Shown: piece by piece, positions 47,604 through 56,419 of the stretch
Numbering within the stretch: position 1 is the first letter of the stretch
How the letters are laid out: each line of letters starts with the position of its first letter
From: Sulfurospirillaceae bacterium
Lineage (GTDB): Bacteria; Campylobacterota; Campylobacteria; Campylobacterales; Sulfurospirillaceae
Reading direction: 5' to 3'
DNA: 64,000 nucleotides
NCBI GenBank assembly: GCA_033723415.1
Contig: JAWVXD010000001.1
Span: 256,001-320,000 of the forward strand
Notes under the pieces: model-generated
Told to the model about the DNA's origin: nothing
The model's input: only the letters and a program-made list of their open reading frames with translations
Databases searched by the model: none
Position numbers and translations under genes: made by a program

Positions 47604-47639
47604 CTTAGTATTTTTTATTTGGTTTATATTGTATTTTAG

Positions 47640-47736
47640 AGATAACGTTTGATTTAAATTAAATCAAATATTTTATCCTTAATCTATCTTATCTCGTTTT
47701 AGTTAAAACTACAAAATGCACTAGGGTGACTTATCT
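47640..47736 (-). repeat. Degenerate terminal attC
   Basis: Minus strand AGATAAG (expected AGATAAC) overlapping the ORF stop, then AAAC-GTTATCT as in other sites; inner arms eroded. Confidence 0.45.
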
Positions 47737-48279: not shown

Positions 48280-48295
48280 AATTTGTTCCTTTTAA

Positions 48296-48364
48296 AGATA
48301 ACGTTTAAAATGAGCCGATGAATTGCACGCAGGGCAATTTATTGGCTCCTCTGATTTGTTAACT
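48296..48364 (-). repeat. attC site (69 bp)
   Basis: AGTTAAC-AAATCAGAGGAGCCAATAAATTGC...GCAATTCATCGGCTCATTTTAAAC-GTTATCT; R'' overlaps AbiV stop. Confidence 0.9.
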
Positions 48365-49036
48365 TTTTGCATGATGTACTTTATTCCATTTTCTAGACTT
48401 CAAACTTGTTTTGTATGACCATGTAAAAAGTATTGGATAGTCATTTTCATTAATAATGCCATCCATTTCCCAAACACCCCAATATCCATCATTTTTTGTA
48501 ACCAAATCATGTACCTCAAGAAATTCATGATTTAAGAGAGAAATCATCTGTTTTGCATTTGCTAGTTTTATTTTTTTCGTAGGAATCGACACCCTACTTG
48601 AAGTGTCAATTTTTCTCTTTGAACGCTCAAGTCCCACATAAATTGCTTCTTGCTTTTGAATTTCTAGTTTTTTCTCTTCTACCTTAGATACGAATGCAGG
48701 AGCATAGTCAAATATTTCACTTGCAATAAATGCGAATTGCTTTTTCGGATGCAAATACAATAGTTTTAACCAGTTTTGTTCAAATGTTACATACTCCTCG
48801 TATTCTGCATCACCTTCTTTTGGGAACCCATTATTTGTAATTGTTGAATAGTAATAATGGTCTACCCATTTAGCTTTTGCAAATTCTTCTAAAGCCAATA
48901 CTGAAAGTTGAAAAGCTGATGGAAAAGATTCATTGTTGTAAAGTAGGATTGAATCTTCATGCAATCGTAATGCATTACGCAAGGATTCTTCTGCAATCTT
49001 TTTGAACTTGTATTGACTTAATCCCTTCAAATTCAT
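48359..49036 (-). CDS. AbiV-family (HEPN) abortive infection protein, cassette-borne
   Basis: NALRLHEDSILL....SAFQLSVLALEEFAK, H.KKQ, KQEAIYVG match AbiV pattern. Confidence 0.82.
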   Translation of the reverse strand: MNLKGLSQYKFKKIAEESLRNALRLHEDSILLYNNESFPSAFQLSVLALEEFAKAKWVDHYYYSTITNNGFPKEGDAEYEEYVTFEQNWLKLLYLHPKKQFAFIASEIFDYAPAFVSKVEEKKLEIQKQEAIYVGLERSKRKIDTSSRVSIPTKKIKLANAKQMISLLNHEFLEVHDLVTKNDGYWGVWEMDGIINENDYPILFTWSYKTSLKSRKWNKVHHAKS

Positions 49037-49052: not shown

Positions 49053-49122
49053 AGTTAACGGTTGTCGTGAACAATAATTCTCCCGCTAGGGTAAATTATT
49101 GGTCTCCTCGTACTTGTTATAA
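49053..49122 (-). repeat. attC site (70 bp)
   Basis: TTATAAC-AAGTACGAGGAGACCAATAATT..CCC-TAGC-GGG..AATTATTGTTCACGACAACC-GTTAACT. Confidence 0.9.
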
Positions 49123-49677: not shown

Positions 49678-49692
49678 GAAGTTCCTTTTTGT

Positions 49693-49776
49693 TTATAACG
49701 GGGGCGCGGGTGAGTGACTGCCGTTGGAAAATCTTTGGATTTTCCAACGGTTGATTGCTCCTCCCGCTTGTTATCT
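49693..49776 (-). repeat. attC site (84 bp) of gene-less cassette A
   Basis: AGATAAC...13-bp perfect central stem CCGTTGGAAAATC/GATTTTCCAACGG...GTTATAA. Confidence 0.88.
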
Positions 49777-49851
49777 GGTGCGAAGCTCCGGATGACTAGC
49801 GGGTGTTCAACCTGCGCCCCCGTTATCTCGGATGCGTAGCGTCCAAGATAA
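49699..49851 (-). other. Gene-less, highly structured integron cassette, copy A (153 bp)
   Basis: Starts GTTATCT, own R'' AGATAAC; no credible ORF; GC-rich nested inverted repeats; paralogous to 53510-53652. Confidence 0.85.
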
Positions 49852-49917
49852 CGTTTAAAATGAGCAATCAAAAAGCCGCTTGCGGGTTTTTGATTGGAGT
49901 GCAAGGTTTTGTTATGC
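49846..49917 (-). repeat. attC site (72 bp)
   Basis: GCATAAC...CAATCAAAAA.CCGC-AA-GCGG.TTTTTGATTG...GTTATCT; 20 bp at R' end identical to 48296-48315. Confidence 0.9.
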
Positions 49918-50679
49918 TTTTTTATTAAATAACAACTCAGTTTTTTTGGGGTCATAGCCACTACACTGGACACAATGTAAACAAAACAGAGGCGATTCAC
50001 CATATGTAAACTTGTTGAACTCAAAATCATTTTTCAAAGATTCTAGAATCAATTCTTTCGAATATGGAATCTTTGTTATTCTTGTATATACCATTTCTGG
50101 ATCTTTAACAACATCAAATGTGACTAAATCAATCTCATGAACTATTTTGGTTGCAACAACATTGTTATATTTTTCATTTTCTATATGGTCACATTCTTCA
50201 AAATTGCGTAAACATATGTTACATGTTCCATCAATACTGTTACAAGTAACTTCATTGTAGATATTGTTTGTGATATGCTCACATTCCAAAGGTTCTTTAC
50301 CACAGATTGAACATAAATATTTTTCAGTACCTCTCATACTGAAACCAAAATCATGATGTAAAAGTATATTTGGGCAGTCAGAGTAGTAGTTTTCACCATC
50401 AAATTTACATTGGCATTCATATTTTTCACATAATATTTCTCCAATTTTATGCATTTTTTTCGATATTTCTACTCTTTTGTCTCTATAAAACCAAAAACAA
50501 TTTAGATACTCTTTTAAAACGGATTGCAAATCTTTTTTAACATCATCACTTTTTTTGTTATTAATTTTTTCAATTAGGGCATTTACCTTTATTGAGCTAT
50601 CTTGCGCGACTTTTGGTGGGCTGTCACTATTTATTATCATCATGATTGCTTCAAATGCTGGCTGTTCTGATTTATGCAT
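49912..50679 (-). CDS. Cys/His-rich hypothetical protein, tandem CxxC-x6-CxH modules; possible prohead-protease-like domain
   Basis: CSICGKEPLECEH...Y and CNICLRNFEECDH...Y, C-terminal CLHCVQC; second gene of a two-gene cassette. Confidence 0.6.
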   Translation of the reverse strand: MHKSEQPAFEAIMMIINSDSPPKVAQDSSIKVNALIEKINNKKSDDVKKDLQSVLKEYLNCFWFYRDKRVEISKKMHKIGEILCEKYECQCKFDGENYYSDCPNILLHHDFGFSMRGTEKYLCSICGKEPLECEHITNNIYNEVTCNSIDGTCNICLRNFEECDHIENEKYNNVVATKIVHEIDLVTFDVVKDPEMVYTRITKIPYSKELILESLKNDFEFNKFTYGESPLFCLHCVQCSGYDPKKTELLFNKKA

Positions 50680-51113
50680 TAGAAATCTTTTAGTGAGTCA
50701 AGTATAGTTTTAATCTCATTTTTATCACCTTCAATTTCTATTTCCACATATTTCCCATCTTTCTTTTTTTTTGTAAATCTTAATTTAATTATTGATTGAG
50801 TGTCAAAATTGTTTTTTATCCAATCATAAATAAAGCTCGACAATATTGAAAATGGAATACCAATGATTAAAGGTAAGATGACAGTTGCGTCTCTTAGAGA
50901 TAAATATTCATAACTTTCTCTCTTTACAACTATATTATTGACTTGATTTTGTTTTAGAACTTTATGTATATCAGGTGTGTACTCGTTGAGAATATCACTG
51001 CTTTCTGAGTATCCTTCTGGCATGATAAAAATTCCATTTTCTGTAAACTGAATATTTCTTTTCTTTAAAGTTTCAGCCACTTCATTAATATCAATGGTTA
51101 TTTCTTTAATCAT
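50679..51113 (-). CDS. Hypothetical protein with one hydrophobic helix
   Basis: RBS AAGGAG/AAGGA, VILPLIIGIPFSILSSFIYDW segment; TAATG coupling to downstream gene. Confidence 0.75.
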   Translation of the reverse strand: MIKEITIDINEVAETLKKRNIQFTENGIFIMPEGYSESSDILNEYTPDIHKVLKQNQVNNIVVKRESYEYLSLRDATVILPLIIGIPFSILSSFIYDWIKNNFDTQSIIKLRFTKKKKDGKYVEIEIEGDKNEIKTILDSLKDF

Positions 51114-51198: not shown

Positions 51199-53481
51199 TT
51201 ATCTTTCAAAAAGATCGTCAATATCATTTGAAAGTAATTGACGTTCTCTATATCTATCTTCATCATAACCATCACCTTGACTTGAAAAATATGAATTAAT
51301 TAGACTGTCTATGTCAATGGAATCAACAATATCATCCGAATTAATATTTATTGTATCGGTGTCAAATTCTATAACCAAATCATCAATGAAGTCATGCAAA
51401 ACATCTTTAATTGATGATTCATCTATATCAAAATCATAGTAATCAAGTGGACTTCTTGTAATGTACGCTGAAATATCTATTTCTGAATGGGCGAAGTCAG
51501 ACAATGCATCTATTAAAGCATCTTGAAGACTATTTTCAAAGTCTGTTATGAATGTCTTATCTGTTAAATTCAAATTGTTAAATATTTCTATTATAAGTGG
51601 AAGATCATCAATTTCATCAATTGAAGTACTGTTTAGTAGTTCTTTTAAATCTATTTGATAATTAAATTCTTTTGTTGCATATACTAATAGTTTTAGCAGA
51701 TCAGTGAAATATATCCCATTATTTGAAACTATATCTATAGTATTTAAAAATGCTTTTATTTTATTATCAAATTCAACTTTATGATCTATATATTTGTCTC
51801 TTATAATTAGCAATGACATACTAAGGAAATATTCATTTTTATTGTCCTTAATATCATATTCCTGAAACAAATAACTAAGGATTTCTTGATAAGTTTGTTT
51901 ATCTATAAAATTATTTTTTTCTAAACTAATTAAATTTGAAATTGATGATTTTGTTTGAAGAGATAAATAAATAAGTTTCAAAAGTTCAATATCTCCTTTA
52001 TATCTATTCATTATGAAATCTGCCAATGATGGATTGAAAAGAGTGTAATTTATGTTACTAGGAGATTGCATATTTCTATTGACAAAGTATTTCACTGTAG
52101 TCTTTATTACATTATTGAACTGATTGTTGATATTGCTTGTAGAAGTGGCTTTTGTGATTTTATTGAGATAGTTATACGATTCATTTAATAACTTCTCGTC
52201 AATACTATTGTTATTAAAAACAATAAGCAAAATTATATTTCTGATAAAATCATCACTTTGACAATCAAATGTATGACTCCAGACCTCTGATGGATTACTT
52301 AAAATACTTAACACATAATTCCAAAAGTTTGACGGCTCTATATCTTCAAAGTTGTTTTTGTTTGTAATGAATGCAATAAGTCTTGGATTGAAGTTTTTAT
52401 GCTTAATAATTTGCATATATCTTCTGTTTTCGTAGATCACATCAATAAAAGATTCAGGTAAAGAACTAAACCAAATATGGTTATATAGTATTTCAGCTTT
52501 ATTAAAATCTGTAAGTCCATCAATTGTCAGGACAAACTCATTTTGATGAATATTTTTATTTTTAAAAATACTACTAATCATATATGCTTGATTGATTATG
52601 TTTGTTCTACTAGTTAAAATAAATTTTTTAGTGCTATCTTTTTTTACTCTGCTAATAAATTGCATAATACTAGAATCATGTTTATGCTCAATGGCATTTA
52701 AAAAGTTACTTCCTAAAAAATCATCAAAGTAAAATACTTGTTTTGTATCTTTGGAGTAAATATTTTCTACTTCTTCTATATCTTTATTAATTAGATAGAA
52801 CTTGTAACCTTGGCTTGAATAAAAGTAACATAAATTTTCTGTTAAAGTGGTTTTTCCTATCCCAGGCTCACCTGTAATTATTAATGCATTAGATTCTTTT
52901 AATATCTCAAGCGCATTTTTATGATTACTAGTATTTACATATAGATGTAGCTTTTCATTTATATCTTCTAGATAACTTTCACTTCTTCCTTCAATAGCAT
53001 TATTTAGTAATCTCATTAATACATTTGTACTACTCAACCATAATTTATAATGATTTTTTTCAATATCAGGAAACTTTTTTAATAAATCATTTAAGTCTTC
53101 CTGTCCATAAATATCATTGTCATTTTTGATAAATGGAGTAAATAGATTTTTAATAGTTTTTTTATTCTCAGAAGATAATGGTAATGAGGTAATAAAATAA
53201 TAGTTTTTTGGTTTTAATAGCTTGACCTTTTCAACTTCATTAATACCTTTATTATTTTTCCTTTTTAGAGATGATATTAATCCTTGAAAACCTGTCTGTA
53301 AATAATGCTTGCACTGAATTATATCTTCTAACCCATTGTTATTGTAATATCGTCCATCTATCCCTCTGTCGCGCCCAGCCTTAAACCGTTCAAATCTTTT
53401 ATTTTTATCTGTTGAAAGTATGTCTATTGATAAGTTTTCAAACTCTTTATCATTTAAACTTGAAAATGTGTAATCAACCAA
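51199..53481 (-). CDS. Mrr-like restriction endonuclease fused to nSTAND3-type NTPase; candidate defence protein
   Basis: EFE.L..D.L, D.GIDG, IIQCKHY; GEPGIGKT, FYFDDFLG, ILTSR, NPRLI; acidic C-terminus. Confidence 0.82.
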   Translation of the reverse strand: MVDYTFSSLNDKEFENLSIDILSTDKNKRFERFKAGRDRGIDGRYYNNNGLEDIIQCKHYLQTGFQGLISSLKRKNNKGINEVEKVKLLKPKNYYFITSLPLSSENKKTIKNLFTPFIKNDNDIYGQEDLNDLLKKFPDIEKNHYKLWLSSTNVLMRLLNNAIEGRSESYLEDINEKLHLYVNTSNHKNALEILKESNALIITGEPGIGKTTLTENLCYFYSSQGYKFYLINKDIEEVENIYSKDTKQVFYFDDFLGSNFLNAIEHKHDSSIMQFISRVKKDSTKKFILTSRTNIINQAYMISSIFKNKNIHQNEFVLTIDGLTDFNKAEILYNHIWFSSLPESFIDVIYENRRYMQIIKHKNFNPRLIAFITNKNNFEDIEPSNFWNYVLSILSNPSEVWSHTFDCQSDDFIRNIILLIVFNNNSIDEKLLNESYNYLNKITKATSTSNINNQFNNVIKTTVKYFVNRNMQSPSNINYTLFNPSLADFIMNRYKGDIELLKLIYLSLQTKSSISNLISLEKNNFIDKQTYQEILSYLFQEYDIKDNKNEYFLSMSLLIIRDKYIDHKVEFDNKIKAFLNTIDIVSNNGIYFTDLLKLLVYATKEFNYQIDLKELLNSTSIDEIDDLPLIIEIFNNLNLTDKTFITDFENSLQDALIDALSDFAHSEIDISAYITRSPLDYYDFDIDESSIKDVLHDFIDDLVIEFDTDTININSDDIVDSIDIDSLINSYFSSQGDGYDEDRYRERQLLSNDIDDLFER

Positions 53482-53503: not shown

Positions 53504-53586
53504 AGCTAACGGGGGCACGGGGGAGTGACTACCATTGGTAAACCTTTAGGTTTTCAATGGCTGATTGCTCCTACCGCGTGTTATCT
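53504..53586 (-). repeat. attC site (83 bp) of gene-less cassette B
   Basis: AGATAAC...CCATTGAAAACC-TAAA-GGTTTACCAATGG...GTTAGCT; paralogue of 49693-49776 with compensatory changes. Confidence 0.88.
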
Positions 53587-53652
53587 GGTGCGAAGCTCCG
53601 GATGACTTGCGGGTGTTCAGCCAGCGCTCTAGTTATCTCGAATGCATAGCGT
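53510..53652 (-). other. Gene-less structured cassette, copy B (5'-truncated)
   Basis: Colinear with copy A (39/40 identity over 53580-53619 vs 49770-49809); similarity stops at 53652, before the leading R' box. Confidence 0.8.
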
Positions 53653-53668
53653 ATTTATTAATGCTAAT

Positions 53669-53674
53669 ATTATA
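53669..53674 (-). promoter_or_regulatory. Candidate -10 box (TATAAT) reading into the cassette array
   Basis: Perfect TATAAT on minus strand just upstream of cassette B; AT-rich context makes a chance match possible. Confidence 0.35.
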
Positions 53675-53884
53675 ATTAGATAATTCTTATATATAGTATA
53701 AACACAATTTTATGTAGTATTTAAACTACAATATAAAGTTTAGTATTACTTTTTAGCCTAGATAAACTATTGTTTTGTGATAAAAAGACATTGATTTTAA
53801 GAAATATTTTGCAATAAGATAACAAGTTACTTGATATTTACTCAAATATAATATCAATAAACAACTCCAAAGCTATGATAAAAA

Positions 53885-53973
53885 TTATAGTATAATTCAA
53901 TTAAAAAAGACTGGATACCTATACTTTTTCTGAAAAAATATCCTACATCTTATCATCCTGACTCCTATATTTA
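53885..53973 (+). pseudogene. Degenerate duplicate of the promoter and 5' end of the histidine kinase gene
   Basis: 24-bp and 27-bp exact matches to 54875-54898 and 54939-54965; ATG replaced by ATA. Confidence 0.8.
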
Positions 53974-54838: not shown

Positions 54839-54910
54839 CACTTCTAGGACATGAAGAAAAATTAGACTCCAAATTTATAGTATAATTCAATTAAAAAATA
54901 TTGGATAAAT

Positions 54911-56419
54911 ATGCTATTTTCAGAGAAGAACATACCGAATCTTATCATCCTGACTCCTATATTTACGATCATCATACTTACGTCTCTCATCACATTTTTC
55001 TTTGTGGATTCTCAGTACAAGTACTTTAAAGAACAAAGCGTGACCTTGGAGAAAAACTATATACAAAAGCAAAGAACGCTACTTAAAAACGAAGTCAACC
55101 GTGTGATCAATTACATAGCTTTTCATAAAAAAAATCTAAAAAATTTAAGTGACAAAGAACTCAAAAAGACGATAGCTGCCTATATCGAGACTATTAGGTA
55201 CGGTGACAACGGCTATATCTGGGTACATGACACGAACTATTATCTCGTCGCGCATCCATTTAGGAAGGATATGATCGGTAAATACGACATCAACTTAAAG
55301 GATGAATCTGGTGCATTTATAACCAGAGCGTTTATCAATATAGCCATCAGCAAGCCTGAAGGCGGTTTTTTGGAGTATTATTGGAAGAAGCCGAGCAACG
55401 GCAAGGTTGAAAAGAAGCTTGGATTCTTGAAGCTTTACGCACCATGGAAATGGGTCATCGGAAGTGGTTTGTACATGGATGACATCTCACACTCTATCAA
55501 GATCGAGAAAAAGCACCTGGAAGAGAAGATCAACAAACAGATCCAGGTCATCATGCTCATAGCTTTTACGTTTATGTTCCTAGTCGGTATGATCTCATTT
55601 GTGATCTCTAGAAATATCATCAATGCTCTTAATTCTTACAAAGAAAAAGTCAGAGACAATGAACTCACACTAAAGACAAAGATCGCAGAGGCGATTAGCG
55701 AATCGCAAAAAAAAGATCAAGCGCTATTGTACCAGTCCAGACTCGCTCAAATGGGAGAGATGATCAGTATGATCGCACACCAGTGGAAACAGCCTCTCAG
55801 TGAAGTGAGCGGGATCTTCATGGAACTGGAGACTATAGGCAAATTTGACGAACTTGATAAAAATTATGTCTTGGAATGTGCAAAAGACGGAGATAAGATC
55901 ACAGAGTACATGAGCAGGACGATAGAAGACTTTAGGAATTTTTTTAAACCTGACAAGAAGAGGGAGAGATTTGATATACAAACTGCATTAGATGAGACCT
56001 TAACACTGGTTGATGCTTCGATTAAAAATTCACATATCCAAATAATTTCCGATATTTCTGAGCACATTTATATAGAAGGATACCCAAATGAATATTCCCA
56101 AGTCATCTTAAATATATTGATGAATGCCAGAGATGCACTGATATCGAGAAATATAGCAAACCCGGAGATTCATATAAAAGTGTATCAGAAAAAGGATCAA
56201 GCGATCTTAGAGATCATTGACAATGCAGGAGGGATAGACGAAGAGATACTAGATAAGATCTTTGATCCATACTTCAGCACCAAAGACAATGTAAACGGTA
56301 CAGGTTTGGGACTGTACATGTCTAAAATGATCATAGAAAAAAGCATGAACGGAAGATTGAGCGTACAAAACACCGATAGCGGTGCAAGTTTTAAAATAGA
56401 AGTAAAGATATGCAACTAG
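54911..56419 (+). CDS. Cache-domain sensor histidine kinase
   Basis: Two TMs, single Cache domain (RYG.NGY.W, Y.W.KP, W.IGSG.Y), HQWKQPL, DNAGGI, GTGLGL. Confidence 0.94.
   Translation: MLFSEKNIPNLIILTPIFTIIILTSLITFFFVDSQYKYFKEQSVTLEKNYIQKQRTLLKNEVNRVINYIAFHKKNLKNLSDKELKKTIAAYIETIRYGDNGYIWVHDTNYYLVAHPFRKDMIGKYDINLKDESGAFITRAFINIAISKPEGGFLEYYWKKPSNGKVEKKLGFLKLYAPWKWVIGSGLYMDDISHSIKIEKKHLEEKINKQIQVIMLIAFTFMFLVGMISFVISRNIINALNSYKEKVRDNELTLKTKIAEAISESQKKDQALLYQSRLAQMGEMISMIAHQWKQPLSEVSGIFMELETIGKFDELDKNYVLECAKDGDKITEYMSRTIEDFRNFFKPDKKRERFDIQTALDETLTLVDASIKNSHIQIISDISEHIYIEGYPNEYSQVILNILMNARDALISRNIANPEIHIKVYQKKDQAILEIIDNAGGIDEEILDKIFDPYFSTKDNVNGTGLGLYMSKMIIEKSMNGRLSVQNTDSGASFKIEVKICN

Follow-up and report, generated by a model that had tools for sequence, protein, structure and literature searches.

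Introduction

MITEs, and the REP/REPIN sequences moved by RAYT, are short, gene-less, palindromic and multicopy non-autonomous elements that are mobilised in trans. At the leader end of CRISPR arrays, variable units are separated by a constant palindromic repeat. Integrons also contain cassettes that encode nothing. The gene-less cassettes of Vibrio superintegrons are 491-666 bp long, have an ordinary attC and mostly exhibit promoter activity, according to the accessible text of PMC11014356, in which a section title states that cassette promoters cannot be identified in silico. The question of whether gene-less cassettes are selfish or regulatory dates from 2006. Thus, Boucher et al. raised both "selfish element" and "regulator" for the Vibrio examples and, in the accessible part of that paper, selfishness is suggested only (PMC1382264). 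ORF-less promoter cassettes of Treponema, and sRNA cassettes of Xanthomonas, couple a classical attC to a promoter or sRNA body and have been proposed to regulate arrays (accessible part of PMC8876359). Some attC sites of low pfold, including some VCRs, adopt branched misfolds that cut the recombinogenic fraction and excision; in those sites the VTS itself misfolds, with pfold reaching 1e-5 to 1e-7 (excerpts of PMC5371416).

In this work, we describe a family of gene-less cassettes whose body is antisense to the cassette's own attC. The starting point was a first-pass annotation of one stretch of DNA, hereafter the window, comprising 64,000 nucleotides from a Sulfurospirillaceae bacterium.

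Results

A cassette made of arms that pair with its own attC

The cassette occupies positions 49699-49851 (153 bp), within an array on the minus strand whose genes are of defence type or unknown (Table 1). The crossover lies between 49698 and 49699, and the first six bases of the R' box are those of the downstream gene cassette. The first-pass annotation saw no credible gene, and the family bears this out. Among 55 copies, length modulo 3 was distributed 16/23/16, 22 had no fully open frame, and no ORF or reading frame was conserved. The motif TATAAT was absent from the top strand in 55 of 55 copies, and a sequence scan of the element body found no promoter.

Three pairings had been proposed for the + strand and all were confirmed. 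Segments 49763-49781 and 49785-49803 align over 19 positions with 15 Watson-Crick pairs, 2 G.T pairs and 2 T/T mismatches. Segments 49695-49707 and 49814-49826 are Watson-Crick paired at 13 of 13 positions, and 49822-49828 is complementary to 49846-49852. The + strand of 49690-49856 was predicted to form a three-way junction plus a terminal hairpin at -51.8 kcal/mol (z -10.6), a stability that none of 200 shuffles reached; the - strand fold scored -42.5. The element body (69 nt) contains nothing but arms pairing with its own attC and a terminal hairpin, at whose ends lie the R boxes of the cassette itself. Descent of the element from an ordinary attC is apparent in its sequence.

Table 1. Coordinates of the element and of neighbouring features in the window.
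Feature	Position	Strand	Details
Composite R' box (RYYYAA|C)	49693..49699	+	Complementary to downstream cassette's R'' at 49116-49122
5' arm: G-rich spacer of 9 nt (49700-49708), then L'-like heptamer (49709-49715)	49700..49715	+	Pairs with outer arm
P2: long hairpin, AT-rich apex, inner attC stem	49712..49760	+	In both folds; 19/20 pairs compensatory
Inner 3' half-site, canonical register	49757..49776	+	L'' 49757-49764, extrahelical C 49761, 5-nt spacer, R'' 49770-49776
P3: anti-R'' arm burying inner R'' box	49763..49803	+	P=0.997; 97.5% of cells paired
Outer anti-arm and second (outer) R'' box 49822-49828	49810..49828	+	Closes fully paired 136-bp site, no unpaired spacer
H: terminal hairpin	49822..49852	+	Box, 17-nt body, GNA triloop 49836-49838, complementary box
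Neighbouring ordinary attC, of two-ORF cassette 49912-51113	49846..49917	+	
Downstream gene cassette, 186 aa	49117..49677	-	No Pfam match
Gene cassette, HEPN_AbiV, same array	48359..49036	-	
Gene cassette, nSTAND3 NTPase, weak Mrr-like N-terminus, same array	51199..53481	-	
Second, decayed element copy, first position of array	53504..53662	+	CM 107.9 bits
Degenerate attI-like array head with TATAAT hexamer	53654..53700	-	Motif matches intI-adjacent attI of relatives

The apex of P2 is 82% AT, compared to 38% elsewhere. P3 is a near copy of the terminal hairpin in which the AAC has mostly decayed, being kept in 13 of 55 copies. With the neighbour included, pairing between R' and the outer box had a probability of 0.94. 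Helix 1 was paired in 98.1% of cells, with compensatory changes between the 5' arm and outer arm at columns 11-13. Across 93 sequences, the outer box was shared between R' and the terminal hairpin (means of 0.64 and 0.31), a split that we regard as almost even. The terminal hairpin of the window copy has a mismatch at 49845. There were 29 different terminal hairpin sequences, every one palindromic, and a GNA triloop was present in 85 of 93. Such triloops are typical of DNA mini-hairpins. The single bases of the window copy may represent an assembly mixture of repeats, because contigs from the best-matching sequencing run do not span the element and carry a different base at 49748.

The first-pass annotation described 49693-49776 as a canonical attC. 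This was correct for the 3' half, which ends at 49776 and comprises 4 nt, the extrahelical C, 3 nt, a 5-nt spacer and GTT. It was incorrect for the other half, where the L'-like motif is 9 nt, rather than 6 nt, from R'. Hence, the inner site of the window copy has 9/5-nt spacers and not the 6/5 arrangement. Among parsed copies the spacers were 9/5 in 85 of 92, 8/5 in 6 and 10/5 in 1; the 3' spacer was always 5 nt. The inner site of this commonest form, type 1, does not have the unpaired 5-6 nt spacer on each arm of a canonical attC. It does have the L box, with the extrahelical base 9 nt from R'' (a C in 92/92) and L'/L'' complementarity at 6-7 of 7 positions in most parsed copies. The outer 136-bp site has neither an unpaired spacer nor single extrahelical bases: its spacer is paired at 9/9 positions in 77 of 92 copies, and the P3 arm occupies the extrahelical position. 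The ends and the setting of the window-type element are those of an integron cassette, yet neither of its sites is a canonical attC.

Covariation points to selection on the attC bottom strand

The 93 distinct full-length sequences formed 56 clusters at 94% identity. The alignment had 55 rows, since one deleted representative was left out, and the window copy was substituted for a near twin. As the first-pass annotation would have it, pairing is conserved in homologues: in these 55 divergent copies, 95.4% of cells in the four helices pair, compared to 38-44% for slid controls. Changes on both sides of a pair occurred in 35 of 57 pairs, and 0 of 500 shuffles matched any measure.

The wobble pairs were strongly biased, with 244 G.T and 22 A.C. 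In addition, the attC bottom strand folded more stably than the top strand in 93/93 sequences. The G.T bias therefore identifies the attC bottom strand, from sequence comparison, as the strand under selection. For attC sites, a bias of G.T over A.C that favours the bottom strand in energy terms is described in the accessible part of PMC5027507.

The conserved bases of the element are the R boxes, the L box and the extrahelical C, which are integrase signals. The inner and outer boxes change together and are identical over six bases in 83/93 sequences. They match the cassette's own R' at 5.87/6 (inner) and 5.93/6 (outer) positions; the inner box matched its P3 partner at 4.84/6 (n=86).

The inner attC is predicted to be shut in single-stranded DNA

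We calculated pfold as in the accessible text of PMC5371416; the values are predicted for equilibrium and take no account of integrase, SSB or supercoiling. The proposal that the body silences the inner attC was upheld in this model. For the window copy, predicted pfold was 0.57 for the site alone and 1.1e-11 inside the cassette. The medians for 55 type 1 copies were 0.23 and 4.6e-11, respectively, and the highest value in context was 1.2e-5, so that the recombinogenic fold is predicted not to be populated. Types 2 and 3 (see below) gave values of no more than 1e-11 in the cassette. Blocking one arm raised pfold to 3e-5 or 4.5e-4 and blocking both raised it to 0.42. Thus, both arms contribute to the predicted loss. 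If the cassette is exposed progressively in the 5'-3' direction, only about 25 nt are predicted to pass before the lock closes. In an unconstrained fold of the excised circle, the mean paired fraction was 0.82. We found the GC skew of 20-kb loci too noisy for assigning the bottom strand to a replication template.

A further suggestion, that the element hides the R' box of the neighbouring attC, was not borne out in that form. The median ratio by which neighbour pfold changed was 0.31 (n=45) for the element versus 0.58 (n=40) for ordinary attC sites (p=0.059), and the absolute medians were equal. Strong shielding of the neighbouring attC was not supported, the effect on pfold being small.

The element is a family with at least three types

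The first-pass annotation offered the element as a possible cis-acting lock or tuner of excision. Rather than a single oddity acting in cis, it represents a family in which three or more types can be told apart by sequence. There are seven copies in the source genome, all on contig C1: three are full-length and well conserved, two are at array heads with altered ends, and two are deletion forms. The source genome has no intI gene, and its copies are therefore now static. Elsewhere we found 93 distinct full-length sequences, nearly all in Campylobacterota integrons, and in relatives the element sits in arrays next to true intI genes. Carriers are vent- and sediment-type epsilon bacteria. DNA searches located the element in 10/61 relatives and 19/401 genomes of the phylum; a covariance model located it in 14/151 genomes of the order, representing 8 of 26 families. 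A pattern scan of GTDB returned 117 stretches and, among the named matches, most were from Sulfurimonas and other Campylobacterota.

A few short contigs (2.5-8.3 kb; L098, L114, L119, L122, L123, L131, L140, L151 and L157) had genome labels from elsewhere: Alteromonadaceae, Gracilibacteria, Muiribacterium, Peptostreptococcaceae, Clostridiaceae and Bacteroidetes. These copies may result from mis-binning or transfer. The element was not found in 150 other genomes of a gammaproteobacterial order in which 120/251 genomes have intI. A scan for the architecture only matched 0/30 intI-flanking loci in that order, versus 9/61 in Campylobacterota, 1 of the 9 being an artefact. Plasmid and phage collections contained no match to the element, and Rfam 15 gave none above the gathering score.

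Elements are 147-158 bp in length, with one deleted copy of 119 bp. Types 2 and 3 are distinct in sequence, have the same arms, and were found by the same model at E values of 4.5e-13 to 3.3e-6. Their inner site is fully canonical (6/5 spacer, L box and extrahelical base) in 8/9 bottom-strand copies; the ninth (L312) was missed by the parsing pattern. At L015:321-1659, two type 3 copies are found in one array and one directly abuts a type 1 copy. The terminal hairpin module was common to different types at L137:2773, L054, L310 and L338, with one of these copies having a hairpin of roughly 60 nt in its place. This pattern suggests that terminal hairpin modules are exchanged at the outer R'' box.

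Junctions and array positions indicate mobility

The four bases to the left of AAC matched the next cassette's R'' at 4/4 positions in 49 of 64 cases; several of the others were long spans that probably passed over an attC. Shuffling gave 3.4 perfect junctions, with a maximum of 10. Because of this difference, we assign the element's left end, from its sequence, to an integrase crossover. All 119 flanked contexts had the array orientation expected: on the side predicted, attI was present in 45 and an attC arm in 74, with 30 of the 119 assigned by eye. Left flanks were varied, with 119 different flanks among 121 contexts, and one identical element sequence recurred in up to 5 places. Tandem copies of the same type occurred in 0/121 contexts, but we draw no conclusion from this count because tandem repeats are prone to collapse, both in cells and in assemblies.

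Position with respect to attI was scored at 62 intI-flanking loci of one family (f16) that were picked by intI and not by the element. Twelve had no attI match and five, ending too near attI, were left out. In the remaining 45 integrons, the element was first at attI in 13 (10 full type 1, 1 deleted and 2 of other types, by eye). At internal sites of ten long arrays, it was present at 7/68. The enrichment at first position had a Fisher p of 0.02 for all types and 0.11 for full-length type 1 alone, the kin not being independent. In some arrays the element (E) alternates with gene cassettes (C) from the attI end: IECECECEC (L283), IECECEC (L285) and IECECEC (L204). Many other alternation strings came from loci chosen for holding two copies. 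A link to one class of downstream gene was rejected, no class being favoured (75 vs 75 ORFs). Contigs from four sequencing runs contained no joint cleanly skipping the element.

The picture of a plain lock on excision is not supported by these observations. The element is not simply locked: it has recombined many times, it exists in several copies of identical sequence, and it is enriched at the position beside attI.

Deletion forms and rearrangements

Forms without the inner site, which speak for use of the outer site, are common. Arrays L145 and L103 each contain two, and 20 metagenome loci were found with a pattern built for such forms. In L289, L162 and L120, other cassettes have an outer-only form as their attC. 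Around position 4005 of L162 (- strand), a short outer-only site is the attC beside an opposite-direction Phd/RelE-like toxin-antitoxin pair. The geometry of the inner site, conserved in all types, speaks for use of that site, although inner-only forms were sighted only twice and were never multicopy. Short forms can arise repeatedly via slippage between internal direct repeats.

Crossovers mapped to the AAC of P3 in L014 and L120, and an inverted attC was joined at the inner box in L340. These three cases, read by eye, suggest an interaction of the integrase with P3. In L287, L304 and L164, either a loop or the terminal hairpin was inverted, which could be due to template switching. In the window, the ordinary attC junctions at 48295-48301 and 47639-47648 open with the element's R' heptamer, which the cassette's R'' does not match; possibly, these are scars of lost element copies.

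Array heads and neighbouring genes

The attI-like head in Table 1 adjoins no intI. The same genome has four attI-like heads with a conserved AT-rich leader (window 53654-53800; G000 C1 about 7750, 8725 and 86014); the arrays seem to have dispersed with their attI and promoter attached. In Campylobacterota, attI has a conserved octamer beside the crossover and, in 86/129 sequences, a -10-like hexamer ending 15-16 nt before it. Because of this arrangement, the array promoter may overlap attI.

Other features were seen nearby. A Y1 (IS200-like, RAYT-type) transposase gene (Y1_Tnp; L001:455-1114) terminates one array of the source genome, and a 578-aa reverse transcriptase ORF (RVT_1; L002:1759-3495) lies at the distal end of a second array. 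Similar ORFs, judged by sequence only, flank the array and intI in G334 (L206). In the window, a promoter-like stretch of roughly 90 bp is duplicated around an outer-membrane beta-barrel gene (53881-53973 and 54871-54965).

Discussion

We favour, with a probability of about 0.5, a selfish origin: a non-autonomous, integrase-mobilised, self-folding mini-cassette that parasitises the Campylobacterota integron integrase. In single-stranded DNA, the ordinary site would be shut and the fully paired outer site presented. The terminal hairpin would zip two R boxes together, such that element and neighbour form a four-way junction, which the integrase could resolve in one exchange despite a 15-18-nt gap. 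The excised circle would be a closed, three-armed single-stranded DNA, about 82% paired, that should resist nucleases and SSB and would reinsert at attI. An element at position 1 could not excise. However, each new gene cassette would push the element to position 2, from where a copy would jump back to the front, generating attI-E-C-E-C-E. P3 would probably be a second, mostly uncleavable, integrase-binding arm.

The selfish reading is consistent with the covariation and strand bias, the junction test, the varied flanks, the enrichment at attI, the alternation, the lack of a favoured downstream gene class and the absence of TATAAT or an ORF. The repeated deletion forms, the crossovers at the P3 AAC and the extensively paired circle also count in its favour. 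Against it, a paired spacer lowers recombination by IntI1 (accessible part of PMC5027507), and single extrahelical bases are missing from the outer site. Furthermore, the inner half-site is canonical in all three types, which would be needless for a purely outer-site parasite, the enrichment at first position is modest, and the alternating arrays were partly chosen for having two copies. Residue P109 of IntI1 has been linked to paired spacers (same excerpts of PMC5027507). In 6 Campylobacterota integrases, the aligned residue is E or Q; the comparison is uninformative because IntI3 also has E.

The main rival, which we consider rather unlikely, is a recombination gate of benefit to the host that senses whether DNA is single- or double-stranded. 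The AT-rich apex of a supercoiled duplex would extrude a cruciform, forming the inner attC while the anti-arms remain double-stranded, and the gate would be on. If the whole cassette were single-stranded, as at forks, in the SOS response or in incoming DNA, the arms would shut the inner attC. The element would then be glued to the next cassette and loss would be limited. The predicted fall in pfold of about 10 orders with the body, reversed when both arms are blocked, fits such a gate, as do the AT content of the apex, the canonical inner half in types 2 and 3 (8/9 parsed), the identity of inner and outer boxes, and the better fit of the inner box to its own R' than to its P3 partner. Both single- and double-stranded folding routes are established (accessible text of PMC8946536). 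However, the commonest type has the 9/5 inner spacer, inner-only deletions were never multicopy, and a lock alone does not explain gain of copies or first-position enrichment. Moreover, the lock would close after some 25 nt of 5'-3' exposure. The selfish and gate readings are not mutually exclusive. We also entertain, as a possibility that we think doubtful, a combination in which the gene-less cassettes are DNA conformational switches: the hidden attC would open only from cruciform-extruded duplex and close once the DNA is single-stranded, and a four-way junction formed in advance would let the unit copy back to attI after each capture.

Position next to attI has another potential explanation. 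Some 150 untranslated, structured nucleotides after the array promoter could damp or insulate expression and so tune costly defence cassettes, with selection keeping the element in front. The -10-like hexamer at attI, and the many neighbours that are defence-type genes, are in line with this idea, and untranslated first cassettes exert polar effects (accessible part of PMC11511950). Yet the transcribed top strand has the weaker fold in every sequence, the wobble bias and the GNA loops indicate that what folds is DNA of the bottom strand, no terminator-like site was found, and control cassettes are equally defence-rich; we judge damping to be unlikely. Strong covariation would equally be expected of a structured non-coding RNA, made from the + strand and carried as a cassette. 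This is very unlikely given that the conserved bases are integrase signals, the loops are of the DNA mini-hairpin type, Rfam has no match, and no promoter for the + strand is conserved, since the upstream neighbour changes. An ssDNA promoter like Frpo was rejected, there being no -10 motif, by eye, in the arm that would have to contain it. Finally, the element could be neutral, a by-product of template switching at palindromes that enlarged an empty attC and is kept only by high turnover. Inversions and palindrome-perfecting rearrangements (L164, L192, L287, L304 and L340) are compatible with this, and template switching could maintain pairing. Conversely, the three-way architecture, invariant extrahelical C and matched boxes recur in three types and 8 families, and the wobbles are strand-biased rather than corrected, leaving this the least credible account.

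The family is short enough to synthesise and, together with natural arm variants, deletions and three types, makes the long-standing selfish-or-regulatory question directly testable. It implies either a natural integrase using a site outside the accepted attC rules, with a paired or 9-nt spacer and a whole hairpin at the extrahelical position, or recombination gated by a switch in DNA fold. If the combined view were true, this would be a riboswitch-like ssDNA device that regulates a site-specific recombinase and also relies on it to replicate, writing a repeat between successive acquisitions. The family would also alter the reading of array order as acquisition history. A ready-made switchable recombination site would also be available for engineering.

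In the main text of mostly open-access papers, we found no description of this family or of a cassette with a body antisense to its own attC. Like the MITE and REPIN elements, the family is short, gene-less, palindromic and multicopy, and RAYT-like genes adjoin some arrays. Unlike them, it ends on integron crossovers with matched R boxes, and target duplications or terminal transposase repeats were not seen. The resemblance to the CRISPR repeat is an analogy only: alternation is incomplete, most arrays have no element, and the enzyme is a tyrosine recombinase. As with the Vibrio superintegron cassettes, there is no gene, copies are multiple, and the sequence is conserved across species and restricted to a lineage (accessible parts of PMC1382264 and PMC11014356). 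The differences are the much smaller size, the absence of TATAAT, and a body antisense to its own attC with covarying pairs. Self-sequestering arms are likewise not reported for the Treponema and Xanthomonas cassettes in the accessible part of PMC8876359. Low-pfold attC sites lose their recombinogenic fold in a similar way to that predicted here. Compared to the VCRs, however, the element has dedicated arms outside the site, a predicted pfold of about 1e-11, and builds a second, fully paired site.
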